DNA from: an uncultured Candidatus Bathyarchaeia archaeon
GTDB lineage: Archaea > Thermoproteota > Bathyarchaeia > Bathyarchaeales > Bathyarchaeaceae
Assembly (NCBI GenBank): GCA_964655075.1
Contig: CAZZLD010000001.1
Coordinates: 239,682-303,681, forward strand
Direction of reading: 5' to 3'
DNA length: 64,000 nt
Shown here piece by piece: positions 31,387 through 63,434 of this stretch. The position numbers and the translations under genes are program-made. A model generated the notes under the pieces. It was not told where the DNA came from and did not search any database. It worked only from the letters and a program-made list of their open reading frames with translations. Within the stretch, counting starts at the first letter, position 1. Each line of letters starts with the position of its first letter.

Positions 31387-32031
31387 TTGGAGAGTGCCAC
31401 TACGCGGCTCATAATGCTTACATGGGAGTATCCGCCTAAACGTTTAGGAAACATTTCTGATCATGTCCAAGCCCTCTCCCATGAACTGGTTAAGCGAGGA
31501 CACGAAGTTGAGGTTTTGACGGAGGACGACACTAAAACCGGTGTTGAAGACATCTCCGGAGTTCACGTTCACCGGGTGGCTAATCAGGTGAAAACGCATC
31601 CGAAGGCAAGCATCCTCACCTTCGCGACGACAGCGTCCGTGTCCATAGAGCGGGAAGCAGCAGACATTATTTACTATTACAGACACGTAGGAAAGAAAAT
31701 CGATTTCATCCACGCCCACGAGTGGCTCACGGTTCCAGTGGCCATTTCGCTTAAACACGCATTCAAGCTACCCTTTGTCTTAACTCTGCATTCCGTTGAA
31801 GGACATCGGTGCCACGACGCCTTTGGACCAATAAGTATAGCAATAAGCGAAGTTGAGAGGATGGGAATCAACGAGGCTGCTAGGGTTATAGCCAACACGG
31901 AATGGATGAAAAACGAGATTCTCCGATATTATGGCGGAGAACACGGAAACAAAGTTGATGTGGCTTGGCCTATTGGAGGAGACTGGGTTCAAGGGATCAT
32001 CAAGGTGTACAAAAAAGTTCTGAGTGCGTGA
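31387..32031 (+). CDS. GT4 N-terminal-lobe-only paralog (no C-terminal nucleotide-sugar-binding lobe)
   Basis: LTWEYPPKRLGNISDHVQALSHELVKRGHEVEVL...IHAHEWL...LTLHS parallels the N-lobes of the neighbouring GT4s. The ORF stops after 214 aa. TTG start. Confidence 0.55.
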   Translation: MESATTRLIMLTWEYPPKRLGNISDHVQALSHELVKRGHEVEVLTEDDTKTGVEDISGVHVHRVANQVKTHPKASILTFATTASVSIEREAADIIYYYRHVGKKIDFIHAHEWLTVPVAISLKHAFKLPFVLTLHSVEGHRCHDAFGPISIAISEVERMGINEAARVIANTEWMKNEILRYYGGEHGNKVDVAWPIGGDWVQGIIKVYKKVLSA

Positions 32032-32041
32032 GGCTCAAATC

Positions 32042-33235
32042 ATGCGTGTGCTTCAGCTAACATGGGAGTTCCCGCCGAGAATCATAGGCGGCATATCCCC
32101 CCACGTGTACGATTTATCTCGAGCACTGGTGAGGAAAAAGGCGGAAGTTAACGTAATAACCTGTAACTTCCCCGGCGCTAGAGAATACGAGAACATAGAC
32201 GGTGTGCATGTCCACAGGTTTGAGACTTACGCAGCTGGAGACTCGTTTTTAGGATGGATTCTGCGCATGCAGAAGAACATGGAGAACAAAGCCAGTGACG
32301 TGGTTAACTCTGATGGAGGCGTAGACGTTATTCACGCCCATGACTGGGTTGCAGGCGTGGCAGGCATCGCGTTGAAGCATTTGCTGAGGAAACCCCTGAT
32401 AGCAACCATACACAGCACTGAATACGGGAGAAGAGCAGGATTACATGATGATTTCCAGAGGTGCATCCATGAAATCGAAGGCTGGTTATGCACGGAATCA
32501 TGGCGGGTGATCACATGTTCACACTACATGGAAGAGCATGTGTCATGGTGCTTCGGTGTGCCTAGAGATAAAATCGATGTCGCACCCAACGGTGTAGATG
32601 TAACGAAATGGCAGTTTCCCTTCGACTACTGGGAGACCCGCAACCGCTTTGCTTCAGGAAACGAAAAAATCATTCTTTTCGTGGGAAGAATGGTCATCGA
32701 GAAGGGCTTAGACCTCATCATCAGAGCCCTACCTACAGTGCTTAACCACGGTATAAACGCAAAAATTGTGGCAGTAGGAGAAGGCCCAGAGAAAGGAAAT
32801 TATCAAAGGCTAGCTTGGAACATCGGAGTGGGCCCAAAAGTTCACTTTACGGGACACATCGACAACGGAACCCTGCGAAGACTCTACCGCGTTGCGGATG
32901 TAGCTATTTTTCCGAGCCGCTATGAGCCCTTCGGCATCGTCGCATTAGAAGCCATGGCTGCTAGGCTCCCAGTGGTGGTTTCCGACGTAGGCGGACTAGC
33001 AGAAATCGTAGATCACGGCGGAACGGGATTGAAGGTTCCTTCGAATAATCCTGGCGCGATTGCGTATGCTGTTGAGCGGATTATCAGAGATGAAGCATTT
33101 AGGAAATGGATTGTTGAGAACGCGTACAAGAAGTGCCTCTGGAACTACAATTGGGATCGAATTGCGGAGCAGACCCTTGGCGTGTACAGCAAAGTTTTTT
33201 GCGAATGGGACGCGGGGGACTGGAAGCCAAAATAA
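32042..33235 (+). CDS. GT4-type alpha-glucan/glycogen synthase-like glycosyltransferase
   Basis: MRVLQLTWEFPPRIIGGISPHVYDLSRALVR...EPFGIVALEAMAARLPVVVSDVGGLAEIV. The ATG at 32042 is preferred to the GTG at 32024. Confidence 0.85.
   Translation: MRVLQLTWEFPPRIIGGISPHVYDLSRALVRKKAEVNVITCNFPGAREYENIDGVHVHRFETYAAGDSFLGWILRMQKNMENKASDVVNSDGGVDVIHAHDWVAGVAGIALKHLLRKPLIATIHSTEYGRRAGLHDDFQRCIHEIEGWLCTESWRVITCSHYMEEHVSWCFGVPRDKIDVAPNGVDVTKWQFPFDYWETRNRFASGNEKIILFVGRMVIEKGLDLIIRALPTVLNHGINAKIVAVGEGPEKGNYQRLAWNIGVGPKVHFTGHIDNGTLRRLYRVADVAIFPSRYEPFGIVALEAMAARLPVVVSDVGGLAEIVDHGGTGLKVPSNNPGAIAYAVERIIRDEAFRKWIVENAYKKCLWNYNWDRIAEQTLGVYSKVFCEWDAGDWKPK
32920..33009. repeat. 90-nt tract identical (inverted) to 28687-28776
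   Basis: See the partner entry. A second tract, 32063-32112, matches the reverse complement of 29590-29639 with one mismatch. Confidence 0.9.
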
Positions 33236-33247
33236 GCCGACGCGAGA

Positions 33248-34300
33248 TCAAAGACTTTTTTCTTCTGCTCGGAAGGTTTCCTTCAAACTTTCAGCAGCGT
33301 CCTCTGGAGACATGGTGTTTATGAACATGCCGTTGCTCTTCTCGAATCCCGCCCATATCGCTAATCTAGGGTAGACCTCGATGTGCCAATGATAATAGTC
33401 CCGCGCAGCGGCTTCGTCCTTCGGCGCTATGTGAAAACCGAAGTTATACGGCGGATCGTTCAACAGCGAACTTAACCCGCCGAGGGAAACTTTCAAACAT
33501 GCAGCCAAAGCGCGGGTTTCATTCTTGCTTATTTCCAGCAGAGTTGACTGGTGTTCTTTGGGGAAGACCCAGAATTCGAAGGGATGGACGCTCGCCCAAG
33601 GCGCGAAAACCCCGAAGCTTTCGTTTTCCCAAATAAATCGTGGACCAGCTTTTTCCTTTTCTAGGATATTACAGAAAACGCATTCTTTGTTTTTACTCCA
33701 GAATTCTTTGCTCGCCGTCAGTTCCTCGATAGGAATTCGTGGAACTCTCGGCGTCGCGATTATTTGGCTGTGGGCGTGAGAAAGGGATGCTCCTGCCTCC
33801 CGCTGATGGTTTCTGAAGATTGAAACATACTTTACGTAGGGTTTGGCGGAAAGTTCGCTGAGGCGGTCACGGTACGCGTTGATCACGTGGACGAGTTGGG
33901 AAACCCGCGCTACACTGGGATGCTCATCATGCCTAGGGGACTCCGCGAGGATTTCATGGTGCCCAAAAGCCAAGGTGGGTATATGCCGCGCTCCCGCTTC
34001 TGCTTCTTCCGCGTTTTTAGGGGGTGTAAATGCAGGATATAAGTTCGGAAAGCATCTTATCAGCCAGTTTTTGTGGCGATAACCGTTTTTATCCTTGTCC
34101 TTTCTTATTTCGCCGTTTGATGGAAGATAAACGAGGATGGCTGGCGGGGTCTCAATCTCGTGGTCTGGACAGAAGGGACAGGCCCCCGTTGCTTCTTCCT
34201 TGATTTTTTTCACAAAGTCGGTGGGACGACGCTTACGCTCTGTTGCAATGACTACCCAACGATTTAGCAAGTAGTCCTTTCGCAATTCGTTAGCGGGCAT
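33248..34300 (-). CDS. galT: Galactose-1-phosphate uridylyltransferase family (HIT-type hexose-1-P nucleotidyltransferase)
   Basis: Zinc motif CPFCP and the active-site HIT variant SLSHAHSQIIA (H-x-H-x-Q). Confidence 0.85.
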   Translation of the reverse strand: MPANELRKDYLLNRWVVIATERKRRPTDFVKKIKEEATGACPFCPDHEIETPPAILVYLPSNGEIRKDKDKNGYRHKNWLIRCFPNLYPAFTPPKNAEEAEAGARHIPTLAFGHHEILAESPRHDEHPSVARVSQLVHVINAYRDRLSELSAKPYVKYVSIFRNHQREAGASLSHAHSQIIATPRVPRIPIEELTASKEFWSKNKECVFCNILEKEKAGPRFIWENESFGVFAPWASVHPFEFWVFPKEHQSTLLEISKNETRALAACLKVSLGGLSSLLNDPPYNFGFHIAPKDEAAARDYYHWHIEVYPRLAIWAGFEKSNGMFINTMSPEDAAESLKETFRAEEKSL

Positions 34301-34338
34301 AAGTATCTCTTCCGAGAGGAAACTGTTATGCTCATTAT

Positions 34339-35598
34339 TTAGGATTTTCTGGTCGCCAACAGCTCCTCGTAGATTTCAGCGGTCTTTCTAGCGATTACGT
34401 CCCAAGTGAATTCTTTGAGGACCCTCTTCCGCGCGTTTTGACCAAGCTGTAGCGTTCTTTCATGATTCTGCAGTGCGTTAATGATTCCCCAAGCAATGTC
34501 CTCTTCTTTATCTGGGTTAACGTGGAAGCCACATTGGTCTTCACCTTGTGCAACGACGGATTCACGCATGCCGCTGACGCCTGAGGCTCCTACAACCACG
34601 GGTTTCTCCATGCTCATAGCCTCTAACGCAACGATGCCGAAGGGTTCGTAGCGGCTCGGAAAAACAGCCACGTCGCATGCCGCGTAATGGGCGATTCTGT
34701 CCTCTTCTGGGATGAATTCGAAACAGAACTTTACTTTGTCTTGTAGATTTAAGTCCTGAACGAGTTTTTGTAGGGCGTGTTGCATATCACCGAGACCCAC
34801 GACAACGAGTTTGGCGTTTGGGATTTTCTTTAGAACTTGGGGCATAGCTAAGATTAGTTTATCCACGCCCTTAATCCAGACAAGTCTCCCTACGAAGAGA
34901 ATCATTAAATCGTCGTCTTTAATCCCGTATCTTCGCCTCAACTCGCCGATCTTTTTGGCGCTCACCTGGTTCATGGAGTATTTCTGGGGATCAACGCCGT
35001 TATAAGAAACCCGAATTTTTTCAGCTGGGAAGCCCAACCCAACTAATTCGTCTTTCATCGCGTAAGAAACAGTGACAACACGATCTGCCATCTGTCCACC
35101 TCGAAGTTCGAGGTTATTTACCACTTCGGAGCCGTTGCCTAAGGTTCGCCCTTTTTCCGTGGAGTGAACGTGAAAAACTAGGGGCATGCCTAGTTCCCTT
35201 TTGACGGCGATGCCTCCCATTGTTGAGAGCCAGTCGTGAGCGAGGACCACGTCGTATTCAAATCCTTCTTTCCGAATCAGTTCGTTAACCAGCTTTGAGG
35301 CGCTAAGATAATTGTACACGAGAAGTTTAGAGAATAAGTGAATTCCTCTACCCCACTTTTTAATATCCTCCGCGATAACGTCAGGCAGGGAATCTGAGAC
35401 ATCGATATGAAGCGGTCGGTGAATTTCAATGCCTCGCCAGAGTTCCCGTGTAGGAAGTTTACCTGCGTCGTCGTTCATGGTGAACACAGACACGTCGTGA
35501 CCTAGTAGAACAAACTTTCGCGTAATTTCAGCAGCATAAGTTCCTAATCCGCCTACGATTTTGGGAGGATACTCGTAAACCAACACCGCCATCTTCAT
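34339..35598 (-). CDS. GT4/GT5-type glycogen synthase-like glycosyltransferase
   Basis: YEYPPKIVGGLGTYAAEI...AHDWL...EPFGIVALEAMSMEKPVVV. Confidence 0.8.
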   Translation of the reverse strand: MKMAVLVYEYPPKIVGGLGTYAAEITRKFVLLGHDVSVFTMNDDAGKLPTRELWRGIEIHRPLHIDVSDSLPDVIAEDIKKWGRGIHLFSKLLVYNYLSASKLVNELIRKEGFEYDVVLAHDWLSTMGGIAVKRELGMPLVFHVHSTEKGRTLGNGSEVVNNLELRGGQMADRVVTVSYAMKDELVGLGFPAEKIRVSYNGVDPQKYSMNQVSAKKIGELRRRYGIKDDDLMILFVGRLVWIKGVDKLILAMPQVLKKIPNAKLVVVGLGDMQHALQKLVQDLNLQDKVKFCFEFIPEEDRIAHYAACDVAVFPSRYEPFGIVALEAMSMEKPVVVGASGVSGMRESVVAQGEDQCGFHVNPDKEEDIAWGIINALQNHERTLQLGQNARKRVLKEFTWDVIARKTAEIYEELLATRKS

Positions 35599-35830
35599 TC
35601 ATCTTCACTCCGAAGAACTTTCCACTTGAAACCCCTTTTAGTCGTTTGGCTCTATTTAGAGGGTATCCCATATAAATTTATTGAAAGACCTCTTCTTCAG
35701 CGGTCTTAACTCTGATGTGATCGAGTGGAGAATAACCTAGCAACCCAAGTTTTTCGGCAGCTTTCCTCACTTTGGATATGCGCACTAAGTTTATATGATC
35801 AGCTTCAGAGTATAATGTTCCCAATAGGTG

Positions 35831-36649
35831 ATGATAGATTTGTCTTTTAGACCCGGAAAGGTCCTTCGTCTAAGCGAGTTTATTAATCCGGAGGATGGAA
35901 AATCGGTCATTTTGGAGGCAGATCAAGGATTAATGCTGGGACCGGTAACTGGCCTTGTGGAATTAGATGAAACAGTTAAAAACTCGAAGAGTGAAGTTGA
36001 CGCTATTGTTTTAAGCCCAGGACAGGCTGGAAGGCTGATCCAGCATTTTCGGGGCAGAAAGGCTCCTGCACTGATAGTGAGAGCGGACTGGGCGAACGTG
36101 TTCCGAGACGAGACCTTTGTCTTGCCCGCCGAAAAAGTGAGGCACGTCACCGTTGTGTCAGCATCAGAAGCCCTTGCTTTTGGCGCCTCGGGCATAATGG
36201 CTTTTTTCATTGTTGGTTATGAAGACGATGAAGACGAGGCTCAGAACATGAATACGCTCGCGTCGCTGGCCAGAGAAAGCGATCGTTTAGGTGTGCCGTT
36301 GCTGGTGGAAGCCCTACCTTTTGGTGCGAGAGTGACTAAAACAAATTATACTGATTGTGTCGATTTAGCGATGAGAATGTCCATTGAGGCTGGAGCGGAC
36401 GCCGTAGCTGTTCCCTACACGGGAGACATCGGCTCTTTTCGGAAAATTGTGGATGCGGCGAAGGTGCCAGTGTTCACTCTTGATGTGGGAAATACGACTA
36501 AAGGTCCCGTTGAGATCGCCACAGAAGCCCTAAAGGCAGGGGCTTCAGGAATAGTAACTGGGACAAAAATTTTCCAAACAGCTGAGCCGTTCAAGATTTT
36601 AAAAACCATAAATGGCATAGTTCACGAGAGGACGAAAAAAAGTTCATAG
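35831..36649 (+). CDS. DhnA/DeoC-family class I aldolase homolog lacking the Schiff-base lysine
   Basis: The family pattern is present (EADQGLMLG...VEALPFG...). At the position where its neighbour has GADAIKTSYTG and the FbaB homolog has GADIIKTKF, it reads GADAVAVPYTG, with an Ala codon at 36407-36409. Confidence 0.7.
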   Translation: MIDLSFRPGKVLRLSEFINPEDGKSVILEADQGLMLGPVTGLVELDETVKNSKSEVDAIVLSPGQAGRLIQHFRGRKAPALIVRADWANVFRDETFVLPAEKVRHVTVVSASEALAFGASGIMAFFIVGYEDDEDEAQNMNTLASLARESDRLGVPLLVEALPFGARVTKTNYTDCVDLAMRMSIEAGADAVAVPYTGDIGSFRKIVDAAKVPVFTLDVGNTTKGPVEIATEALKAGASGIVTGTKIFQTAEPFKILKTINGIVHERTKKSS

Positions 36650-36666
36650 CAAGGCGAAGGAAACTA

Positions 36667-37971
36667 ATGCTAAGCCCTGGGAAAACACTTCGATTAAGCA
36701 AGATCCTAGATCCCGACGACGGCAGAGGCGTTGTGGTTGCAGCCGACCACGGCTTCATGCTGGGCTCAATAAAAGGCATTTTCGACCTTGAAAAAACTTT
36801 GAGACGTGTTATCGCGGGAGGACCCGAGGCGGTGTTACTGAGCCCTGGGCAAACTGCGCGCTTGGGTTACCTGTTTCATGGACAAAAAGCTCCAGCTATT
36901 CTCGTTAGGGCTGATTGGACAAACGCATTTAGAACCAAAAAATATGCCCTCCCGACTCGTACCATCGGACGTGCGATGGCAGCCACCGCAAGGGATGCTC
37001 TGTCCCTAGGCGCCTCCGGCATAGTAACCTACTACTTTATCGGGTGCAACGATGAGATCGAAGCGCGGAATTTCGAGTTAATGGCCACGTTCGCAAGGGA
37101 GTGCGACGAGATTGGGCTGCCCTTCATAGTTGAGCCGCTCCCATTTGGTGAACGTGTGACGGGGGCAAACCAAGCTGAGTTGATCTTGACGTCGGTCAGG
37201 ATGGCTGTGGAAGCCGGAGCGGACGCCATCAAAACATCCTACACAGGAGATGTCACAACGTTTAGGAACGTAGTGAAGTCTGCAGGTGCCCCTGTTCTCG
37301 TTCTAGGAGGGGCTAAGGCGAGGACCATGCGGGATGCATTTGAAGTCGTAGCTGAAGCCCTTGAAGCAGGGGCTTCGGGGGTGGTTTACGGTCGACAAGT
37401 TGTTCAAGCCGAGGATCCAGCTGAGTTTGTTAGGTCTGTTAGGGCTGTTGTGCATGAAGGAAAAAGCGTGCGTGCTGTATGCGGTGTACATGCAGAACCG
37501 ATCAGATGGCAGATAGATGTTGAAAAGTGTACGGGATGCCGTATGTGCGAAGTAGCATGTGCTTTTCGTCACGAACAAAACTTCTCATTTTCAAAGGCTA
37601 GGATCCGCGTGGAATCCTCATCTGAAGAGGGTTATCAACCGATCCTATGCTCACTTTTGCTTAAGTGCACGCATTCCATGATTAATTCTCTCTCGCCTTC
37701 CTTAACCTCTTCAGTCCACCATCCGGTGTGCGTAGAAGCATGCGGTAGGGAAGCGCTCACCGTTAACCCTACGACGGGATATCTTCAGCTTAGAGTAGAA
37801 AGGTGTTCTGGTTGTAAAAAATGTGTTAAGGCGTGTCCGTTGCATGTAATTCGATTCGACGAAGAAAGGAAGATACCATTAGTTTGCGATATGTGCGAAG
37901 GATCGCCTGAGTGTGTTGAGTGGTGCCAACCTAAAGCCTTAGTGGTCGTTGAGCCAGAAAGTAAAGGCTAA
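36667..37971 (+). CDS. DhnA-family class I aldolase fused to a 16-Cys (four x [4Fe-4S]-type) ferredoxin module
   Basis: The N-terminal ~265 aa have AADHGFMLG and GADAIKTSYTG (Lys codon 37231-37233). The C-terminus has CTGCRMCEVAC, CSLLLKC...PVCVEAC, CSGCKKCVKACP and CDMCEGSPECVEWC. Confidence 0.75.
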   Translation: MLSPGKTLRLSKILDPDDGRGVVVAADHGFMLGSIKGIFDLEKTLRRVIAGGPEAVLLSPGQTARLGYLFHGQKAPAILVRADWTNAFRTKKYALPTRTIGRAMAATARDALSLGASGIVTYYFIGCNDEIEARNFELMATFARECDEIGLPFIVEPLPFGERVTGANQAELILTSVRMAVEAGADAIKTSYTGDVTTFRNVVKSAGAPVLVLGGAKARTMRDAFEVVAEALEAGASGVVYGRQVVQAEDPAEFVRSVRAVVHEGKSVRAVCGVHAEPIRWQIDVEKCTGCRMCEVACAFRHEQNFSFSKARIRVESSSEEGYQPILCSLLLKCTHSMINSLSPSLTSSVHHPVCVEACGREALTVNPTTGYLQLRVERCSGCKKCVKACPLHVIRFDEERKIPLVCDMCEGSPECVEWCQPKALVVVEPESKG

Positions 37972-38019
37972 ATTGTATGGAGGATGATCGCGGCCGTGGG
38001 TTTAGAAAACAGGGGTTAC

Positions 38020-39834
38020 ATGGACAAGATTCTTCATGTAAACTTAACAGATAAATCCCATAGAGTAGAACAAATCGACGAGAAGATAGTTCGTCTTTTA
38101 TTGGGTGGTAAGGGCCTGGGAACGTGGTTGCTTTACAAATTAACCGAGAAGGGCACTAAGCCCCTTTCTGCCGACAACCCCCTGATATTCGCAACGGGGC
38201 CGCTGACAGGAACCATCGCGCCGACCAGCAGTAAATTCTGCGTCGTAACAAGGAGCCCAGCCACGGGAACAATGGATGATGCGTACTGTGGCGGGTTTTT
38301 TGGTTCAGAATTGAAATTTGCGGGATACGACGTTGTTGTCATAATGGGAAAAGCTGAAGAACCTTCTGTCTTGGTTATTGAGGATAGCGACGTTAGTATT
38401 CAACCTGCTAATGACCTGTGGGGGGCAACGACCTTTGACACATACCGGACTCTTAGGAAACGTCTCGGAAAGAGATACCAAGCTGCTGTGATAGGTCCCG
38501 CTGGTGAGAGGCAGGCTCTCATAGCCAGCATTTTCGTAGACACACGAACAGCGGGGAGGGGGGGTACTGGAGCAGTTATGGGTTCAAAGAATTTGAAGGC
38601 GGTTGCAGTTAGGGGGACCGGGAGCGTTCAAGTGAATGATCTTGAAGAATTCAAGAAAGCCACTTGGATTGCCTATCGAACGTTGAGGATGAACGAGGTC
38701 ACTGTGAGAAGTATGCCCCTTTATGGAACTGCGAATATAGTGGAAACTATAAATGAAACGGGCGCCTTTCCCACCCGAAACTTTCAGACAGGCAGATTTG
38801 AAGATGTAGAAAAGATTTCTGGTGAAAGCTTTCGTGCGGATCCTTGGAAGAAGGACATAGCTTGCAGTTTAGGGTGCACGATTATTTGTAGCAAGATCGC
38901 TTGTTTGAAAGAGCCGTATAGAGGCGTAGAGGTTGATGGCCCAGATTATGAGACTGTCTACAGTCTCGGATCCAACTGCGGGGTTAGCGATAAGGATGCT
39001 ATAACCTATGCCAACCTTCTATGCGATCTCTACGGGATAGATACCATTAGCACGGGCGTCATTATCTCCTTTGTTATGGAACTATATCAGAGAGGGATGA
39101 TTAGCATCGACGATTTAGATGGCATCGAAGCAACATGGGGAAACTCAGATGCATTGGTGAAATTGAGTGAAAAAATCGGGAAGGGCGAAGGAATCGGCGA
39201 ATTACTACAACTTGGAGTTAGAAGAATAAGCGAGAAGTATCCGGGCAGCGAAGGCTTTGCCATGCACGTTAAAGGCTTAGAGATGCCTGGCTATGACCCC
39301 CGCGCAGCTCAGGGCATGGGATTATGCTACGCCATATCGGAACGCGGAGCATGTCATCTGAGGGCTTTCACCGCTGGCAGAGAGTTATGCGGCTATGGAG
39401 GTGGCACCGATCCGCTTTCCTACGATCATGCGAAGGTTCAACTGGCAATAGATCAACAAGATGAAAAGGCGGTGGTGGATTCTTCGGTGCTATGCTTCTT
39501 TAACTTATTCGGCATGACCTTGAAAGAGGTTTATCAGATGCTGACGCCATGCACTGGCTTTGAATACGGTGGATATGCGGGCCTAAAGAGGTTGGGTGCC
39601 CGGGTCATAACACTCACTAGAATATTTAACGCTCGAGAAGGCTTTGGAAAAAAGGACGACACGTTACCTCCAAGATTTCTGAAGGAACCTATGACAGAAG
39701 GCCCAGCTAAGGGCATGGTAGTCCACTTAGAACCCATGTTAACAGCGTATTACGACATCAGAGGATGGGATGAGGACGGGATTCCTACCAAGGAAACGTT
39801 GAAGAAACTCAGCTTAGATCAAATTCTCAGTTGA
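38020..39834 (+). CDS. aor: Aldehyde:ferredoxin oxidoreductase family (tungstopterin) enzyme
   Basis: MDKILHVNLTD...LLGGKGLGTWLL (AOR_N), GTGAVMGSKNLKAV, CYAISERGACHLRAF, EKAVVDSSVLCFF. The ATG at 38020 is preceded by a purine-rich aggggt. Confidence 0.85.
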   Translation: MDKILHVNLTDKSHRVEQIDEKIVRLLLGGKGLGTWLLYKLTEKGTKPLSADNPLIFATGPLTGTIAPTSSKFCVVTRSPATGTMDDAYCGGFFGSELKFAGYDVVVIMGKAEEPSVLVIEDSDVSIQPANDLWGATTFDTYRTLRKRLGKRYQAAVIGPAGERQALIASIFVDTRTAGRGGTGAVMGSKNLKAVAVRGTGSVQVNDLEEFKKATWIAYRTLRMNEVTVRSMPLYGTANIVETINETGAFPTRNFQTGRFEDVEKISGESFRADPWKKDIACSLGCTIICSKIACLKEPYRGVEVDGPDYETVYSLGSNCGVSDKDAITYANLLCDLYGIDTISTGVIISFVMELYQRGMISIDDLDGIEATWGNSDALVKLSEKIGKGEGIGELLQLGVRRISEKYPGSEGFAMHVKGLEMPGYDPRAAQGMGLCYAISERGACHLRAFTAGRELCGYGGGTDPLSYDHAKVQLAIDQQDEKAVVDSSVLCFFNLFGMTLKEVYQMLTPCTGFEYGGYAGLKRLGARVITLTRIFNAREGFGKKDDTLPPRFLKEPMTEGPAKGMVVHLEPMLTAYYDIRGWDEDGIPTKETLKKLSLDQILS

Positions 39835-39922
39835 AGCATTCACATCACATGAACAGATGGCTACGATAGATACATGTCAGATTTACGGAAGATTTTTAAA
39901 TAGCTAGTATTGATTATTAATT

Positions 39923-41269
39923 ATGAATAAGAAATTTGTTCTTATGGTTTTTACGTCAGTGTTTTTGCTATTGGCGACGCTTGGAGCACAATTTATAATG
40001 CCAGCCACAGCACAACCAGCGATAATAAACGTGCCAAAGGATTATCCAACCATACAAGCGGCTATAAATGCGGCAAGTTCAGGAGACATCATTAATGTTT
40101 CTTCAGGAACATACATCGAGCATGTAGTCGTGAACAAGTCTATATCGCTTATCGGAGAAAACAGAAGCACCACCATAATCGACGGCAACATGACTGGCAC
40201 TGTTCTTAGTGTGAGTGCGGATGACGTTGAAATTACTGGGTTCACGATACAAAATGGTAGTCGCCCTTATGGGGACGGTTCTGAGTACGGCATCCTCGTA
40301 TCCTCTTCCAAGAATATCACAATCAGTGGAAACATAATTTTCTATAATGATGCTGCCATTTTCCTAAACTATTCAAGTGGCAACATAATCAATGACAATA
40401 CAATATCAATCTATGGTTGGGGAGGCATTATCTTGGAGTGGTCTTATGACAACGTAATCAAAGACAACAAAATCGACAGCGGAGGCGGCCTTGCTCAAGT
40501 TGGCGTTGGCCTTTACTTTTCCAGTCATAACGTTATTTCTGGCAACTCGATATTGAACAACGGCTATATAGGCATTAGCGTTTCATGGGAAAGCCAGTTA
40601 AACAGGGTCATTGGCAATACCATAACGAAAAGCGGAGTAGCCGGCATCGCTTTTGTTTCTGGAAACACTTTTTACCACAACAATCTCATTAACGATGGGG
40701 CAGGCGGTGATGGACCGAATACTTGGGATAATGGTGCTGAGGGCAACTATTGGAGCGACTACAATGGTACAGACACAAATGGCGATGGCATAGGCGACAC
40801 ACCCTACATAATTAATGAAAACAACCAAGATAATTATCCTTTGATTTTTCCAGTTGTCTGGAACTATTCTAATCCTATTCCAGTCCTTTGGCAGGGAACA
40901 ACCTATCCTGTGGAAATATCTAGCAACTCCACAATCTCGACGTTCAAATTCAACCATCCTCAAATGCAGATAAGCTTTAACGCTACAGGTCCATCTGGCA
41001 CAGTTGGCTTCTGCAATGTTACTATTCCAAAGGCCCTTCTAGGAGCTAATGAGACCCATCCGTGGCAAGCACTTTTAGACGGCGCCCCCATAAACTACAC
41101 CAAAACAGAAAACGAAACCCACACAACCCACCACGTCCAGATAATCGGAACCTCAGTGACGCCGGAATTCCCCACAACCCTGATCTTGCCCCTACTCATG
41201 ATCATCGCCCTAGCCGCAGCCATATTAGGAAAGACTATTCACTCAAACAGAAAACTACATTGCCACTGA
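39923..41269 (+). CDS. Secreted right-handed beta-helix (NosD/PbH1-repeat) surface protein with a PEF-CTERM-like sorting signal
   Basis: N-terminal signal peptide. Repeats: ISGNIIFYN..., IKDNKI..., ISGNSILNN..., VIGNTITKS.... The C-terminus is ...VTPEFPTTLILPLLMIIALAAAILGKTIHSNRK (PEF at 41162-41170, then a TM helix, then a basic tail). Many N-x-S/T sequons. Confidence 0.7.
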   Translation: MNKKFVLMVFTSVFLLLATLGAQFIMPATAQPAIINVPKDYPTIQAAINAASSGDIINVSSGTYIEHVVVNKSISLIGENRSTTIIDGNMTGTVLSVSADDVEITGFTIQNGSRPYGDGSEYGILVSSSKNITISGNIIFYNDAAIFLNYSSGNIINDNTISIYGWGGIILEWSYDNVIKDNKIDSGGGLAQVGVGLYFSSHNVISGNSILNNGYIGISVSWESQLNRVIGNTITKSGVAGIAFVSGNTFYHNNLINDGAGGDGPNTWDNGAEGNYWSDYNGTDTNGDGIGDTPYIINENNQDNYPLIFPVVWNYSNPIPVLWQGTTYPVEISSNSTISTFKFNHPQMQISFNATGPSGTVGFCNVTIPKALLGANETHPWQALLDGAPINYTKTENETHTTHHVQIIGTSVTPEFPTTLILPLLMIIALAAAILGKTIHSNRKLHCH

Positions 41270-41303: not shown

Positions 41304-42368
41304 TCATGCATACGTTTTGAATGGTCTGCGGTATTGAGGTTCTTTCATAATCTTGGCTACAGCGTTTGCGTATTCTAACCCTTCTTTCACTGGGACCCCC
41401 CAGAAATTCCTTCCTATGATTCTTCCCTCGGCACCAGCGTTCATAACTATTCTTGTCATGGAGGTAAGTTCCTTTTTTGGATCGCCTTTTATCTTTGGAC
41501 CGCCAGAAACAACCACAAAAGACCTTGGTACAGCATCTACAACCAACTTCATTCTATGCGTATGCTGTTTTTCTGTCAATTCTCTGCCTTTTTCTGGCTC
41601 AAGCTTTCGATATTCTTCTGCTTCAGGTGTTGTCTTCGTCAGTTTTTTCAGATAATTAAAATATGCTTCTCTCTTTTCTTCTTTCACAGGCGCGGGAAAT
41701 TTTGTTTTTATGATGTCTGCACCTAAAGACTCGGCGACGACGCAGGCGTAATGCACCCAATATAGGCTATCAGCGCCGATCTCATCTACACCTGGTCCTC
41801 TCGCATACGCCCACACCACTGCAGGCATACCGTACATGTGGGCTTCTCTGATTATGTCGCCTATCCTCGTCATATCCTCTCTCGTCATCTCGGAGCCGGG
41901 GTAGAATGTCATACCAATTGCTGTAGCCCCTAATCTTATCGCATCTTCAACGCTCCCTATTGTTGAAGGTATAGCAGGGTTTTGTGGCATCATCATGTGA
42001 CCATCAAGCTTGTATATTAACGGAATATCTAGCCTCAGAAGATCCTGATATTTATCCACAATTCCAGGATGCAGAACAACCGCAGAAAAATCGCCTCTGT
42101 TAGCCAATTCAATAACTGTTCTAGGGTCAGCAGATCCCTGACCAGTTGTAGCGACTTTTGTAACGTCTTTTTTTGACCACTTAAAAGTGTGTACCGCTCC
42201 ATGCTCCACCAACTGATCGAAGGGTAAGCTCAAAAAAGTTCCTCCACCGGGCCCATTTTCGTAGAGCATTTTATGTAGTCTTTCCATTCTTCCCCTACCC
42301 AAATGAGTTAATTTCTCAAGTCTTGGCCTGCCTGAAATATTAACTGCAACATTTTCTTCTTTACTCAT
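41304..42368 (-). CDS. fbaB: Class I fructose-bisphosphate aldolase, long DhnA/FbaB type
   Basis: LSLPFDQLVEHG, VVWAYARG, GADIIKTKF and IIGRNFWG parallel E. coli FbaB LSILPVDQGVEHS, VLWAYLR, GADIVKQK and ILGRKAFK. The start is set at the ATG at 42368 (MSKEEN). Confidence 0.8.
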   Translation of the reverse strand: MSKEENVAVNISGRPRLEKLTHLGRGRMERLHKMLYENGPGGGTFLSLPFDQLVEHGAVHTFKWSKKDVTKVATTGQGSADPRTVIELANRGDFSAVVLHPGIVDKYQDLLRLDIPLIYKLDGHMMMPQNPAIPSTIGSVEDAIRLGATAIGMTFYPGSEMTREDMTRIGDIIREAHMYGMPAVVWAYARGPGVDEIGADSLYWVHYACVVAESLGADIIKTKFPAPVKEEKREAYFNYLKKLTKTTPEAEEYRKLEPEKGRELTEKQHTHRMKLVVDAVPRSFVVVSGGPKIKGDPKKELTSMTRIVMNAGAEGRIIGRNFWGVPVKEGLEYANAVAKIMKEPQYRRPFKTYA

Positions 42369-42514
42369 GTCCTGATCACCACAGCACTTGATTCTTAAAT
42401 GGCTTAGAGAATATAACACCATAGCATTACATATAAATTTTTTATCGCATTTTCGATGCTTTTGCTTATGCTATGCGTGTGCGCGTTTTCACCAACTTTC
42501 CGCTAGCCAACTCT

Positions 42515-43546
42515 TCAGGTTAGTGAGAAGAATTTCGTTAACTCGAATAGATCTTCTCCCACGGTTTTCAATTTCTTGGTCGTGTCCTCCAGTTTAACCG
42601 CAACAATTTTGGTTCCTTGGAGAGCAGCTACGTGACCGAATTTCCTTTGTTTGACTAGATCGACCGCAAAAAAACCTAAACGGATGCCTAAGATTCTGTC
42701 GAAAGCGTCAGGCGAACCGCCCCTCTGTAAGTGCCCAAGAACCACTGACCTCGTTTCTTTTCCGGTTCTTTTAGCGATTTCCTTCTCTAGAACGTCAGCT
42801 ATGCCGCCTAATCTAACATGCCCAAACTCGTCTGTTTCCTCGCTTACAGTAATTAGGTCGTCCAGATTTTTAGTTTTGGCGCCTTCCGCAACCGCAACGA
42901 TACTGTATCTTTTTCCTTTGGCTTCACGTTTGTTTATGACATTGCAAACTTCTTTAATGTCGAAAGACTGTTCGGGGAGCAAAATCACGTGGGCTCCACC
43001 TGCTAAACCGGCCATCAGAGTCATCCATCCCGCGTGGCGACCCATAACTTCGACGACTATTACCCGATGATGCGATTTGGCTGTTGTGCGAAGTGAGCTG
43101 ATCGCTTCTGCTGCGGTGGATACTGCCGATTCGAACCCTATAGAATAGTCTGTGGCTGAAAGATCGTTGTCGACGGTTTTTGGCACTCCAACCGCTGGAA
43201 CTCCCATTTTGACAAGTTTAGAGGCGGCGCCTAGAGTGTCGTCCCCTCCGATGACGATTAAGGCGTCTATACCGAATTTCTTAATGGTTTCCATTACTTT
43301 TTTCGGGCCGCCCTCTGTTTTGAATGGGTTTGTTCGTGATGTTCCTAAGATGGTTCCTCCAACTTGGAAGATGCCTTCAACATCGTCAAGTGACAGCGGT
43401 TTAATGTCTCCGTTGATTAGACCTGCGTAGCCGTTTAGAATCCCTAAAACTTCGTATCCGTATTCAACAGCTCTAGTGACAACAGCTTGTATTGCGGCGT
43501 TTAATCCTGGACAGTCGCCGCCACCAGTAATAACAGCTATTTTCAT
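42515..43546 (-). CDS. pfp: 6-phosphofructokinase, pyrophosphate-dependent type by signature residues
   Basis: MKIAVITGGGDCPGLNAAI. It has GGDDTLG (Asp at the E. coli PfkA Gly104 position) and VPKTVDNDL (Lys at the Gly124 position), the two residues classically linked to PPi rather than ATP use. Confidence 0.75.
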   Translation of the reverse strand: MKIAVITGGGDCPGLNAAIQAVVTRAVEYGYEVLGILNGYAGLINGDIKPLSLDDVEGIFQVGGTILGTSRTNPFKTEGGPKKVMETIKKFGIDALIVIGGDDTLGAASKLVKMGVPAVGVPKTVDNDLSATDYSIGFESAVSTAAEAISSLRTTAKSHHRVIVVEVMGRHAGWMTLMAGLAGGAHVILLPEQSFDIKEVCNVINKREAKGKRYSIVAVAEGAKTKNLDDLITVSEETDEFGHVRLGGIADVLEKEIAKRTGKETRSVVLGHLQRGGSPDAFDRILGIRLGFFAVDLVKQRKFGHVAALQGTKIVAVKLEDTTKKLKTVGEDLFELTKFFSLT

Positions 43547-51230: not shown

Positions 51231-51323
51231 TGGCGGGCCCGCGGGGATTTGAACCCCGGATCTCCGACTTTCTTCGCGTCTCCGTAGAAGGCCGGTGCCT
51301 TGTCCTAACTTGGCCACGGGCCC
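51231..51323 (-). tRNA. tRNA-Arg (anticodon UCU) with a 15-nt canonical 37/38 intron; CCA encoded
   Basis: The reverse complement is GGGCCCG UG GCCA AGUUAGGACA AGGC A CCGGC CUUCUA[cggagacgcgaagaa]A GUCGG AGAUC CGGGG UUCAAAU CCCCG CGGGCCC G CCA. CUUC pairs with GAAG of the intron, flanked by two 3-nt bulges that carry the splice sites (bulge-helix-bulge). Confidence 0.85.
51270..51284 (-). other. tRNA intron (canonical position 37/38)
   Basis: See the tRNA-Arg(UCU) fold. A 4-bp central helix lies between 3-nt bulges UAC and AAA. Confidence 0.7.
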
Positions 51324-57707: not shown

Positions 57708-58802
57708 ATGAGGAATGTAGGTAGCCAACAAATGTCCAGCGGTATAACCAACATTACACAAGTATTCAAGAAAAACACTGACAATCTAATAAAACTCTTA
57801 ACTCTCCTCTCGTTCATCATACCATTTCTCGTGTTATATTTTCTATATCCATACTCCTTTGAGGCAACATGGAAAGGCAGAACCTACTACCTTTTTTTTC
57901 TATGGCTCTTTTTTCTAGAGATGATATTGAGTTGGGAACAGCTACAAACAAAAAAATGGAAACTAAAATCCATAAGAACTGTGGCTCTCATCATAGCCCT
58001 CCTGCTTCCTTCAATCTATGTGGTTGCTGCCAACTATTTCGGATTGAACACGATGATTGTGAACTTGGCTGTTCAATACAATGTGCCCCTTGCAGACTGG
58101 ATGCCCCTCGCAACAGAATATCTGGTTTTTACAGCGCTTTTTGCATCGATAATTCTGCTGGCATATGGAATCCACGGCTTAATTGATTTCGCGATCTCTG
58201 CATTCTTTTTGGGCATTATCGGAGTGATATACACGATAGACAATTTATATCCAGAGGGAAGCTTCACCCCATTCCAGTTTCTCGTTCCAACCACGGCGAG
58301 GCTCGCAGCAACCGTTCTAAATCTACTGGGATACCAAACACATTGGTTTGGCATATACGGCGGCATGCCCACTTTTATTGCTTGGGATTCCCAGGGAAGA
58401 TATTCTCTTCCTTTTTCAATAGCTTGGCCGTGTTCAGGCATTGAGAGCCTTGTAATCTATACTGTCATAATGCTGTTGTTTTTGAAGAAATCCAATATTT
58501 CTTGGATACGAAGGATAATCTATTTTGTAATTGGCGCTATAGTCACCTATTTCATTAACATTCTGAGAATTGTTACCATTTATGTGATTTCAATAAACGC
58601 TGGAAACATCTGGCGTTTTCATGACTATTACGGCCAATTGTACTCCATCGCATGGATAATATCTTACCCACTGTTGATAACGTTTCTTCATTCACGGACG
58701 TTTTCGCGTTTACCCCGCTTCCATAAGTGTTTCATATTATTTGCTTTATCCGTTTCCATAATGTTTGTGGTTTTAGCTGTTGTTGGCGGTCTATCGGCTT
58801 AA
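57708..58802 (+). CDS. Archaeosortase/exosortase family transpeptidase
   Basis: Polytopic membrane protein with AWPCSGIESL (catalytic Cys motif) and NILRIVTIY (conserved Arg). The start may be a downstream Met. Confidence 0.75.
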   Translation: MRNVGSQQMSSGITNITQVFKKNTDNLIKLLTLLSFIIPFLVLYFLYPYSFEATWKGRTYYLFFLWLFFLEMILSWEQLQTKKWKLKSIRTVALIIALLLPSIYVVAANYFGLNTMIVNLAVQYNVPLADWMPLATEYLVFTALFASIILLAYGIHGLIDFAISAFFLGIIGVIYTIDNLYPEGSFTPFQFLVPTTARLAATVLNLLGYQTHWFGIYGGMPTFIAWDSQGRYSLPFSIAWPCSGIESLVIYTVIMLLFLKKSNISWIRRIIYFVIGAIVTYFINILRIVTIYVISINAGNIWRFHDYYGQLYSIAWIISYPLLITFLHSRTFSRLPRFHKCFILFALSVSIMFVVLAVVGGLSA

Positions 58803-58865
58803 CGGTTGCCTCTTTTTAAGAGCCTGATTGATAAAATAACAGCTAATCTTTACACGTCATATTTC

Positions 58866-59720
58866 TTAATGATGAGAAAACAGGCTCATGAGTAGACCCG
58901 CTATCATGAGGCATGCTTTTAAACATAAAAGAAAAGTACATCCAACAATTATGGAAGGTGATTTCTTAAAGTCTCTAAAAACTTCTCTAATAGTATACAG
59001 GGAAGAATTGAAAAGCGAGGGAAGAACACGTTTTCTGGAACGCTGCATAAAAATGGGCACGGACTTTCCATAATGAAGATTTTTCAGTGAGATTTTTTTG
59101 ATTGAGTCTGGTTCATAATGGTAAAGCTTGGATTTGCATGAAGCTTCTCTTGTGTCTATTTCCTTTAATCGTTTGTAAAGATTGTAGTCTTCACCCCACA
59201 ACAGGTTAGCATCAAGCAGTCCTACCTGATTTATTCGTTCCTTAACAAAAAAGCGAGGTTCACCGGGTATGAGGTTTTCACGAGCAGCATACCGTTGCCC
59301 CACCTGCTCATAACAGTTTTTCCAAGTGGCTGAACAAAGACTCCAGAAGCCTTTTCCAATGAAAACTTCGGGAATCATAATCATTTCAACATTTTCATTT
59401 TTGCATTTTCTAACGCATTCCTCAATAGCTGATGGAGATAAAACTTGATCCGAGTCCAGAAAAAGTATGTATTTCCCCGTTGAATTAACCACGCCGACAT
59501 TTCTAGCTAGGGCTGGATTGGATTTTTGCTTTATTATTTTGGCGCCGAATTCGGTTGCTATTTTTACGGTGTTATCACTGCTAAAATTGTCAACAACTAT
59601 GACTTCACAAAGAGGGTAGCTTTGCATACGTATACTTTTGAGGCATTCTGTAAGAGTTTCACCTGAATTATAAGTAGGGATAATTATTGATACCTTTGGA
59701 TTTTCTGAATTTCTGTCCAT
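58866..59720 (-). CDS. Family 2 glycosyltransferase
   Basis: VSIIIPTYNSGETL...VIVVDNFSSDNT...LFLDSDQ (DxD). Confidence 0.8.
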   Translation of the reverse strand: MDRNSENPKVSIIIPTYNSGETLTECLKSIRMQSYPLCEVIVVDNFSSDNTVKIATEFGAKIIKQKSNPALARNVGVVNSTGKYILFLDSDQVLSPSAIEECVRKCKNENVEMIMIPEVFIGKGFWSLCSATWKNCYEQVGQRYAARENLIPGEPRFFVKERINQVGLLDANLLWGEDYNLYKRLKEIDTREASCKSKLYHYEPDSIKKISLKNLHYGKSVPIFMQRSRKRVLPSLFNSSLYTIREVFRDFKKSPSIIVGCTFLLCLKACLMIAGLLMSLFSHH

Positions 59721-59746
59721 TGATTTACCTCGGTTTGTTTGAGGAA

Positions 59747-62263: not shown

Positions 62264-62291
62264 GGCACACCTCTTAAAAAGTTAACGGCTA

Positions 62292-63434
62292 TCACCTTTC
62301 TAATAGTCTATTATAAATACCAATTATTTTGCTTGAATACTCTTTCCAGTTAAGGAAAGTGTTGGTACCCTCTGTAACTTTGGGGTAGGTTTTTCTTGTG
62401 GCCTTTAGAAGCGCACCTGCAATTTCTTCGGGGTTAAGAGAGTTAACTCCTTCCGCCAACCCAGCCTTAACTAGATGCGCTGTGGCACCGAAGTTTAAAA
62501 CAACCGCGGGAATCCTCATCAACAACGCTTCATAAACAACCCTGCTAAAACTTTCTAAAGGTGAAAGCATAATGAAAACGCTTGCTTTTGCAAACTCATT
62601 TAAAAGTTGCTGTCTGGATAAGCCGTGCTTCCACTCTATAGAGCTGTCCACACCTGAATCATAAGCTAGATTAGTTAAAGATTTGTATTCTGAACCTTCG
62701 CCCACTATTACAAGCCTGAAATGTGTGTATCCCTTTCCAATAAGGCATGCAAAACCCTTAATGACCTTGTCAACGTTTTTGTAACGTCTTAAAGCCCCAA
62801 CGTAGAGAATTCTTTTAGGTTCCACAGGATCGTGTTTCACATCCCTGATTTCATCAACATCTATACCTTCAGGAACCAAAAGAACATTACGACAACGAGG
62901 AAAATCTTGGCAAAGGATCTTTTTCTCATACGTTGAATTAGCTATTATGAGAGCTGCACGGGAGAAAACTACATTGTTGAGGGCATATTTGTAAAGTTTA
63001 AATACAGAATTCCTAAGAGGGGATTGCCCAAAACGATGATAATGCGGTTGTAGCAGTAAGCTTTGTTTTCTACGTTTAAACAACGCTACAAGAAAAGGTA
63101 GAAAAGTGTGAATACTGTGCACATGAACAATCTCTGCTTTCTCACGTCGTAAAGCTGCAACAAGTTTCGGTTCTGTAATATAAAACGGATCAGCTAGCAA
63201 GGAGATAAACCTTCGAACTAAGACACCGTTGATTTCTTGCTGTCGTACCATGCTATTAATTAGATCAGCTGAATAGACGGTTACTCGGACTCCGTCTGCA
63301 GCCAGAGTTTCACTTATCTTCTGTACAATTATTTCTACGCCGCCAATGTTAGGTAAATATTGTGGAGTAACTTGCAGAACATTCATGAGGCGGTCCTCTA
63401 ACGTTATATCTTTGTGCTTTTTATCGGCTCCCAA
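62292..63434 (-). CDS. Family 4 (GT-B) glycosyltransferase
   Basis: Q..PNIGGVE N-terminus, HVHS, and ESFSRVVYEALLMRIPAVV (E-x7-E region). Confidence 0.8.
   Translation of the reverse strand: MGADKKHKDITLEDRLMNVLQVTPQYLPNIGGVEIIVQKISETLAADGVRVTVYSADLINSMVRQQEINGVLVRRFISLLADPFYITEPKLVAALRREKAEIVHVHSIHTFLPFLVALFKRRKQSLLLQPHYHRFGQSPLRNSVFKLYKYALNNVVFSRAALIIANSTYEKKILCQDFPRCRNVLLVPEGIDVDEIRDVKHDPVEPKRILYVGALRRYKNVDKVIKGFACLIGKGYTHFRLVIVGEGSEYKSLTNLAYDSGVDSSIEWKHGLSRQQLLNEFAKASVFIMLSPLESFSRVVYEALLMRIPAVVLNFGATAHLVKAGLAEGVNSLNPEEIAGALLKATRKTYPKVTEGTNTFLNWKEYSSKIIGIYNRLLER

Follow-up and report, generated by a model that had tools for sequence, protein, structure and literature searches.

An aldolase-polyferredoxin fusion encoded between a lysine-less aldolase paralog and an aldehyde oxidoreductase in archaea and bacteria: a candidate aldolase-tungstoenzyme complex

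Closest described systems

To our knowledge, the accessory subunits known for enzymes of the aldehyde:ferredoxin oxidoreductase (AOR) family, namely polyferredoxins, FAD subunits and bifurcating modules, only carry electrons. The locus considered here lies in a stretch of 64,000 nucleotides (nt) from an uncultured Candidatus Bathyarchaeia archaeon (contig CAZZLD010000001.1, positions 239,682 to 303,681; hereafter the window), where three consecutive genes, termed the cassette, encode a lysine-less aldolase paralog (P1), a fusion of an aldolase domain with a polyferredoxin (P2) and an AOR-family enzyme (P3). The same iron-sulfur (Fe-S) gene placed directly upstream of the AOR gene, and the same cofactor ligands, are found in AorABC of Aromatoleum aromaticum (8c0z) and in WOR5-ASOR of Pyrococcus furiosus (6x1o). 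In AorAB, FS1 and FS2 connect to the cluster of the catalytic subunit, and AorA proteins of the AOR_Aa subclade form filaments by way of a C-terminal helix of about 20 residues (PMC10413684). The cassette differs from AorABC and WOR5 in that its polyferredoxin is fused to an N-terminal class I aldolase and in that a dead aldolase paralog is co-encoded. Compared with AorABC, it lacks the FAD subunit AorC and the C-terminal filament helix, and its AORs form a clade of their own. The polyferredoxin-partnered AOR is the known part of the system, and the acquired aldolase module and the pseudo-aldolase subunit are the new part. A preliminary description of this DNA had stated that no characterised aldolase-polyferredoxin fusion was known, and in the literature searched (8 million full texts) no description of an aldolase-polyferredoxin-AOR system was found. 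A 2025 review of tungsten enzymes lists the partner types AorABC, WOR1, AOR_Mt, WOR5 and BamBC and never mentions an aldolase.

Aldolases that work next to an oxidising enzyme, or next to a non-catalytic partner, have been described in other settings. In DmpFG and BphIJ the aldolase passes a reactive aldehyde straight to an oxidising partner. The aldolase DmpG is HMGL-like, metal-dependent and of class II, its partner DmpF is an NAD/CoA-dependent acylating dehydrogenase, and these complexes have no tungsten, Fe-S wire, fusion or pseudo-subunit; the channeling idea is the same as that proposed here for the cassette, but it is an analogy only and the proteins are unrelated. GatZ and KbaZ are non-catalytic aldolase subunits encoded beside a catalytic aldolase, of class II, whereas the dead partner in the cassette is a sister paralog of the catalytic domain and belongs to a different superfamily branch. 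With archaeal GAPOR and with GOR from Caldicellulosiruptor, an AOR-family enzyme acts right after the aldolase step of sugar breakdown, as is proposed for the cassette. GOR also carries a polyferredoxin subunit (PMC10413684).

The cassette and its distribution

Positions are given in coordinates of the whole window and residue numbers are those of the window's own P1, P2 and P3. The cassette features are the following.

35831-36649, + strand: P1, Lys-less DhnA-family pseudo-aldolase, 272 amino acids (open reading frame, Pfam, alignments)
35828 (GTG) and 35840, + strand: alternative starts of P1
36407-36409, + strand: Ala193 of P1, at the Schiff-base Lys position (alignment)
36667-37971, + strand: P2, aldolase-polyferredoxin fusion, 434 amino acids (open reading frame, Pfam)
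36667-37485, + strand: N-terminal aldolase domain of P2, residues 1-273 (Pfam, alignments, model)
37132-37134, + strand: E156 of P2
37231-37233, + strand: K189 of P2
37486-37509, + strand: short in-frame linker of P2, residues 274-281, from the last aldolase helix to the first strand of the Fe-S module
37510-37971, + strand: C-terminal polyferredoxin module of AorA/WOR5-S type in P2, residues 282-434
37657-37722, + strand: replacement of the second Cys of group 2 (L331) and Ser-rich insert (...MINSLSPSLTSSVHH), residues 331-352 (alignment, model)
37984-39834, + strand: P3, AOR-family tungstopterin enzyme, 616 amino acids (Pfam, matches to Protein Data Bank structures, tree)

Pfam assigned P1 to DeoC (E 6e-22), P2 to DeoC over residues 22-247 (E 1e-34; 120 bits against a cut-off of 23.8) followed by Fer4 dicluster families over residues 282-430, and P3 to AFOR_N (E 5e-77) and AFOR_C (E 4e-129). 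The reading frames agree with the three co-directional genes of the preliminary description and with its 17-nt spacer between P1 and P2. The spacer of about 48 nt given there between P2 and P3 is only one of three options, as P3 may begin at ATG 37984, GTG 37996 or ATG 38020, which leaves a spacer of 12, 24 or 48 nt, respectively.

The fusion is not peculiar to the window. Searches covered 5.8 billion proteins, one genome per GTDB species and a library of 1.84 billion representatives clustered at 50% identity. The protein set yielded about 70 clusters of full-length fusions at 90% identity (401-445 amino acids, 34-89% identity), and a search with P1 added about 30 bacterial clusters, giving more than 100; a profile search of the 50%-identity library returned about five full-length representatives. 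At least 38 GTDB species of archaea and bacteria carry the fusion. The hosts listed comprise Bathyarchaeia, Thermoproteales, Hadarchaeota and an Asgard metagenome-assembled genome (MAG) among the archaea, and many Anaerolineales and other Chloroflexota, Bacteroidota/Ignavibacteriales, KSB1, Zhuqueibacterota and an Alkaliphilus (Bacillota) MAG among the bacteria. The fusion forms a single compact family, a pattern consistent with its having arisen once and then passed between domains. The window P2 protein occurs identically in two further assemblies, its linker region is conserved among fusions, and three-frame translation of P2 gave no alternative open frame across the junction or the insert; this translation and the wide recurrence rule out the frameshift or assembly artefact that had been a concern for the junction.

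The P1-like and AOR genes are inherited with the fusion. A P1-like gene is present in 35 of the 38 fusion loci listed and a full-length AOR gene adjoins the fusion in 34, and in the 31 fully complete loci the order P1-like gene, fusion, AOR is kept on one strand with tight or overlapping junctions. Most missing genes are explained by contig ends; the exceptions are L018, where the order is fusion, AOR, P1-like gene, and L025, which has no adjacent P1-like gene. Pairwise distances of P1, aldolase domain, Fe-S module and AOR correlate with one another over 32 cassettes (Pearson 0.81-0.95), in part as a reflection of shared phylogeny. The three genes are a conserved, co-inherited unit.

A separate case is a 3.2-kb contig (JAABXR010000029.1) from a Planctomycetota bin labelled Phycisphaerae. 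It bears part of a cassette, 69% identical to the window protein, in which the fusion is divided between reading frames; the contig is probably archaeal, placed in the wrong bin and affected by a frameshift.

P1, a folded aldolase paralog without its lysine

In alignments to MJ0400 (2qjg), the class IA fructose-1,6-bisphosphate (FBP) aldolase (FBPA) of Thermoproteus tenax (1ojx) and Escherichia coli LsrF (3gkf), Ala193 of P1, in the motif GADAVAVPY, falls exactly on the Schiff-base lysine. This bears out the K to A substitution noted in the preliminary description, and the lysine is absent rather than displaced: the column holds Ala, Ile, Val, Thr, Ser or Met in 37/37 P1 orthologs, the lysine is likewise missing from 38/38 archaeal P1 homologs, and the sole lysine conserved among 36 orthologs is the N-terminal K10, common to P2. 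With no conserved lysine in the barrel, a shifted catalytic residue is ruled out. The losses extend over the whole active site, since P1 has only a degenerate Asp-His motif, lacks the equivalents of Y122, R178, Y192 and D195 of P2, and has lost the GR motif. Compared with MJ0400, FBPA and LsrF, it lacks both phosphate loops as well as the lysine; the GG loop is deleted in most members of the P1 family and replaced in the others, and in the window TLDVGN stands where P2 has VLGGAK, as had been pointed out in the preliminary description.

The fold itself seems preserved. The predicted structure of P1 is a complete (beta/alpha)8 barrel (mean predicted local distance difference test, pLDDT, 89; predicted template-modelling score, pTM, 0.89). 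While every pocket residue kept by the fused domain is lost in P1 (37/37), the fold-defining residues are retained together with a loop, R-x-D-W-x-N-x-x-R...P, that is common to P1 and P2 and absent from MJ0400, FBPA and LsrF. Beyond its own orthologs the nearest relatives of P1 are fused aldolase domains, and P1 and the fused domain are therefore sister paralogs. P1 scores 142 against TIGR01949, 95 against NF040816 and 94 against NF006081, all below the NCBIfam cut-offs. By its residue losses and the confident TIM-barrel model, P1 is a conserved pseudo-aldolase, predicted to be folded but clearly non-catalytic, which fits the scaffold role once suggested for it.

The aldolase domain of P2

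The fused domain shares with MJ0400, T. tenax FBPA and LsrF the TIM barrel, the Schiff-base lysine, the Asp-His motif and the GG and GR loops. Its motif GADAIKTSY places K189 on strand 6, aligned to the Schiff-base lysine of MJ0400 and to K177 of T. tenax FBPA, so that the lysine reported for the second gene, and its in-frame fusion to a Cys-rich module, both hold. The AlphaFold2 model of P2 (pLDDT 88, pTM 0.81) has ADH synthase MJ0400 as closest structure, with a Foldseek template-modelling (TM) score of 0.88 and a root-mean-square deviation of about 2.5 Å; target-normalised TM scores were 0.88 for MJ0400, 0.87 for T. tenax FBPA and 0.80 for LsrF. Despite this similarity the cassette aldolases are only 24-32% identical to these enzymes and lie below every NCBIfam cut-off. 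The best match of both P1 and P2 is the ADH-synthase subfamily, followed by archaeal class I FBPA and LsrF, and for P2 the scores are 167 against a cut-off of 299 (TIGR01949, ADH synthase), 142 against 430 (NF040816, archaeal class I FBPA) and 108 against 297 (NF006081, LsrF); a further score of the cassette aldolases is 191 against 241.

The key residues of P2 are D27-H28, the loop R81-x-D83-W84-x-N86-x-x-R89, Y122, E156, K189, Y192, G214-G215 and G242-R243. In an alignment of 72 full-length fusion clusters, D27, H28, R81, D83, Y192, D195 and the GG and GR motifs are invariant (72/72), Y122 and R178 nearly so, and residue 189 is Lys in 63 and Glu in nine. The pocket residues are retained down to 35% identity. 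This retention argues for ligand binding or catalysis rather than folding, because the co-resident paralog lost the same residues under the same structural constraints.

The pocket departs from that of MJ0400 and FBPA at one point. The Tyr and Arg of the YPRG motif (Y146 and R148 of T. tenax FBPA, which we take to be the proton shuttle and the distal-phosphate ligand, respectively) align to L158 and F160 in P2, these two positions are hydrophobic in 72/72 fusions, and neither cassette paralog has the Tyr or the Arg. LsrF, a proven thiolase, also lacks both in the alignment. A conserved glutamate, E156, is found instead two residues before the Tyr position, and it is Thr or Cys in exactly the nine sequences with K189 changed to Glu. 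E156 and K189 may thus be read as a functional Lys-Glu pair. The fused domain looks catalytic, but not like an FBP aldolase, and with the YPRG Tyr and Arg missing from both paralogs a conversion of FBP to glyceraldehyde 3-phosphate (GAP) is unlikely.

Relatives of the fused domain also exist as standalone proteins (P0087, P0082, P0227, P0228 and others), members of a wider subfamily of DhnA-type aldolases. They keep the lysine, share the RADWxNxxR loop and the Glu-for-Tyr pattern, and adjoin glycoside hydrolases, a sugar transporter and a sugar-acid dehydratase, so that they look like ordinary sugar-catabolic aldolases.

The Fe-S module of P2

The best structural matches of the Fe-S module are AorA (8c0z_C), WOR5-S (6x1o_B), 9mqx_E and BamC (4z3w_E), which, with the conserved adjacency to an AOR gene, agrees with its earlier assignment to the four-cluster ferredoxins that partner molybdo/tungstopterin oxidoreductases and makes it one of the type that partners AORs. 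The family norm is four complete groups of CxxCxxCxxxC type, and all four are complete in 62/72 sequences. The cysteine groups of the window protein are 288/291/294/298, 328/(L331)/355/359, 380/383/386/390 and 407/410/416/420. The total of 16 cysteines noted in the preliminary description is correct only by counting Cys334, which lies off the canonical position, is unique to the window protein and is not conserved in its closest relatives; the four-cluster arrangement holds for the family, but group 2 of the window has three conserved cysteines, in contrast to the corresponding site of AorA and WOR5-S. Leu replaces the second Cys of group 2 in the window protein and in nine relatives, and an insert comes after it, either 5 or about 21 residues long. 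The longer version, which has a conserved SLSPSLT, is of low complexity and is disordered in the predicted structure. A His four residues before the third Cys of group 2 (His351 in the window) is present in 8/10 sequences of this insert subclade. To judge by these residues, the site may be occupied by a [3Fe-4S] cluster, or else by a [4Fe-4S] cluster that has a residue other than Cys (His) among its ligands.

Only 14 residues follow the last Cys in the window P2, and the family median is 13 amino acids. By tail length no AorA-like C-terminal filament helix is present in the fusion family, nor is an AorC-like gene present in the cassette. Oligomerisation of the fusion proteins may instead be mediated by the aldolase barrels.

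P3 and its clade

P3 matches AorB (E 1.5e-138) and PfAOR (E 1.4e-145), and its AFOR_N and AFOR_C domains and intact residues agree with the AOR-family tungstoenzyme originally proposed. P3 and all cassette AORs keep the Cys ligands of FS0, the catalytic Glu and His and the pterin-binding Asp and Arg, including the equivalents of PfAOR C288, C291, C295, C494, E313, H448 and T243, as well as the hydrophobic AOR-type pocket (F496, F/Y499). The GAPOR model NF040818, in contrast, gives P3 only 43.7 bits against a cut-off of 1300, over the N-terminal 120 residues, and the cassette aldolase lacks the distal-phosphate Arg. By its residues, P3 is an AOR sensu stricto and appears to be an intact tungstoenzyme. 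A neighbour-joining tree unites the cassette AORs of archaea and bacteria and separates them from PfAOR, from 9mqx_D and from the non-cassette AORs of two of the same loci; the non-cassette AORs are 40-43% identical to cassette AORs, and the mean identity within the cassette clade is 53%.

A possible coupling of aldol cleavage to aldehyde oxidation

From the domain identities, residue conservation, synteny, co-variation and separate AOR clade that were observed, we infer a model in which complex formation, activity, substrate class, direction and channeling are all to be taken conditionally. The cassette would encode a heteromeric ketose-1-phosphate aldolase/AOR enzyme that channels a non-phosphorylated aldehyde, a reading to which we give about even chances. 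P3 would dock on the polyferredoxin module of P2, as AorB does on AorA and WOR5-L on WOR5-S, with this polyferredoxin covalently tethered to a putatively competent class I (Schiff-base) aldolase domain. The latter would pair with the dead paralog P1 in an oligomer of DhnA type, in which P1 would contribute architecture only. With K189 and its two phosphate loops, GG and GR, the aldolase domain would bind a ketose 1-phosphate and cleave it into dihydroxyacetone phosphate (DHAP) and a non-phosphorylated aldehyde such as lactaldehyde, glyceraldehyde, glycolaldehyde or acetaldehyde. The aldehyde would be handed directly to the tungsten site and oxidised to the acid, and FS0 and the four-cluster wire would carry the two electrons away, to ferredoxin or to some other partner. 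Such coupling would pull the unfavourable aldol cleavage forward and would stop the reactive aldehyde from escaping.

The choice of a non-phosphorylated aldehyde follows from the hydrophobic residues at the YPRG Tyr and Arg positions of the fusions and from an AOR that is not GAPOR-like, both of which point to it. The aldolase-to-AOR complex suggested in the preliminary description is supported in part: the conserved unit, the type of wire, the folded pseudo-paralog and the ligand pocket speak for it, and a simple FBP/GAP version is unlikely. Cassette aldolases acting as the FBP aldolase of the organism, with P3 as a GAPOR, were ruled out by the missing Tyr and Arg, by the FBPA and GAPOR scores below cut-off and by a genuine FbaB gene next to a phosphofructokinase (PFK) gene in the same window; given this pair, the cassette is not needed for glycolytic cleavage of FBP.

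The genes around the cassettes offer weak hints only on the substrate. Sugar kinases of the FGGY and PfkB families recur there (in L082 a xylulokinase equivalog), as do xylose-isomerase-like and lyxose-isomerase proteins, epimerases, and glycoside hydrolases (GH38, GH2, GH31, melibiase). A LarA protein above the lactate-racemase equivalog cut-off is encoded directly upstream of the cassette in one Chloroflexota lineage and LarA is also near one archaeal cassette (LarA loci L082, L084, L087), a lactate permease lies near the cassette of L089, and TauE-family exporters lie directly downstream of the AOR in six Chloroflexota loci. This context hints at a 2-hydroxy acid such as lactate as product. 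The candidate aldehydes that the context favours most, though weakly, are lactaldehyde, glyceraldehyde and glycolaldehyde. Sulfoglycolysis was considered on account of the six loci with TauE and of a distant match to the sulfohexulose-1-phosphate aldolase fold, and was abandoned as nothing further favoured it.

Several observations weigh against a coupled aldolase/AOR enzyme. The catalytic Tyr is missing from both paralogs, and the only ground for E156 as its replacement is the correlated loss with K189. The nine K189E sequences form a coherent archaeal subclade, with E156T/C and all other pocket residues kept (P0034, 36, 37, 39, 40, 41, 46, 47, 48; loci L003, L085). This subclade retains the cassette with a closely related AOR (67% identical), and its P1-like partner is shorter (235 amino acids), more degenerate and without the RxDW loop. 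Schiff-base catalysis is dispensable there, and the double change could mean that the Schiff-base chemistry has been lost or that a different mechanism has taken its place. The correlated distances owe something to common descent, and no universal neighbour emerged from an enrichment analysis of 206 flanking open reading frames, the sugar and lactate signal coming from few lineages. Finally, AOR sensu stricto enzymes also act as stand-alone, broad-range scavengers of aldehydes.

The main rival explanation is a structural or regulatory role for both barrels, which seems unlikely on balance yet is the most serious competitor. Both barrels would be non-catalytic and would either oligomerise and stabilise a polyferredoxin-AOR that has neither AorC nor filament helix, or bind a sugar phosphate allosterically, with the AOR oxidising free aldehydes. 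DhnA-family enzymes are large oligomers, decameric in 1ojx, 2qjg and 3gkf, and without the helix and AorC another assembly platform is plausible; P1 is clearly non-catalytic, no catalytic Tyr is present in either paralog, and the subclade with K189E and E156T dispenses with the lysine and keeps the cassette. However, that same clade keeps the rest of the pocket, and folding or assembly alone can hardly explain why Lys, Asp-His, GG and GR persist in 63/72 fusions over two domains of life when all are lost in the co-resident paralog. The sugar-catabolic appearance of the standalone relatives that keep the lysine is a further point against purely structural barrels.

Two other explanations are improbable, to a similar degree. 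The first is that the system runs in reverse, as a reductive machine forming C-C bonds: electrons would enter through the Fe-S wire, the AOR would reduce a carboxylate (glycolate, lactate, acetate, formate) with low-potential electrons, and the aldolase would trap the aldehyde on DHAP as a ketose 1-phosphate, serving reductive assimilation or detoxification of acids. A variant would have a decameric DhnA-type core wiring several AOR arms into one electrically connected megacomplex. Reduced ferredoxin is abundant in the hosts, which are anaerobes with a fermentative or acetogenic metabolism, and aldol addition would pull the unfavourable reduction forward. AORs are reported to be the only enzymes known to reduce non-activated acids (PMC9295118). 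The neighbourhoods, in contrast, are catabolic (glycoside hydrolases, kinases, lactate racemase, exporters) and no obvious sink for a ketose 1-phosphate is encoded nearby. If the reductive version were true, it would be a previously unknown route from organic acids to sugar phosphates in anaerobes.

The second is another Schiff-base chemistry, either LsrF-like (acyl transfer, retro-Claisen) or ADH-synthase-like (transaldol), with the AOR supplying or removing the aldehyde partner. It would agree with the ranking of the profile matches, with ADH synthase as the closest structure and with LsrF likewise lacking the YPRG Tyr and Arg. It agrees poorly with profile scores so far under the cut-offs (191 against 241, 167 against 299, 108 against 297) and with a cassette present in bacteria, which would not use the archaeal 6-deoxy-5-ketofructose 1-phosphate route; no CoA-handling or aromatic-biosynthesis genes are linked in the loci examined.

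That two separate genes were joined by misassembly or a frameshift, or that the locus is a pair of pseudogenes in decay, has a negligible probability in view of the identical protein in two further assemblies, the 72 aligned full-length clusters, some 30 more from bacteria, the loci of at least 38 GTDB species, and the conserved linker with no other open frame at the junction.

Transcription signals and surroundings of the cassette

Two further features flank the cassette in the window.

35790-35795, + strand: TATA-box-like TTTATA, candidate archaeal promoter of the operon, 41 nt before the P1 ATG (inferred only)
39893-39897, + strand: oligo-T run, candidate archaeal terminator, 59 nt past the AOR stop codon (inferred only)

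The intergenic gap that contains the TTTATA is 232 nt long and follows a divergently oriented glycosyltransferase gene. The short spacers, the TATA-like element and the oligo-T run suggest that P1, P2 and P3 form a single transcription unit. A scan with bacterial promoter and terminator models gave counts near shuffle expectation and is uninformative for an archaeal host.

Upstream of the cassette in the window (32024-35598) lie genes for two GT4/starch-synthase-like glycosyltransferases and a GalT-like gene. Downstream (39923-41269) a NosD-like beta-helix protein is encoded, which has a signal-like segment at its N-terminus and a hydrophobic anchor at its C-terminus; FbaB and PFK come next. 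The FbaB homolog (41304-42422, - strand), with full WAYARG and IIKTKF motifs (GADIIKTKF), adjoins a gene of the ATP-PFK family; the pair spans 41304-43546 on the strand opposite to the cassette, 1.5 kb downstream of it. Farther away, a tRNA gene (51231-51323, - strand) of about 90 nt, against a model of 71 positions, is given an odd 4-base anticodon by ARAGORN and is probably an intron-containing archaeal tRNA. The G+C content is 0.38-0.40 over 58001-64000 and about 0.47 elsewhere in the window; this segment may be an island or foreign DNA.

In other genomes, the archaeal cassettes of P0054 and P0043 (L087, L088, L089, L090) have as recurrent neighbours several paralogs of URO-D-like type (PF01208) and a DUF6785 protein, and in L087 a second, non-cassette AOR adjoins a ThiS-like gene.

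Meaning for the hosts and for the AOR family

The cassette places a C-C lyase covalently on an electron wire. A pseudo-enzyme partner is dedicated to it, its AORs form a clade of their own, and it is present in at least 10 archaeal and bacterial lineages that dominate anoxic sediments. Source annotations name the P1 and P2 proteins 'fructose-bisphosphate aldolase', 'aldolase' or '4Fe-4S binding protein'; if the proposed coupling is true, such labels would mislead metabolic reconstructions and the annotation should be corrected. The coupling would also offer a natural aldolase-oxidoreductase channeling scaffold for biocatalysis. Moreover, it would provide a physiological source of substrate for the AOR sensu stricto, whose role in vivo has long been unclear, and would constitute a ferredoxin-reducing branch of sugar or deoxy-sugar fermentation in Bathyarchaeia and Anaerolineae.

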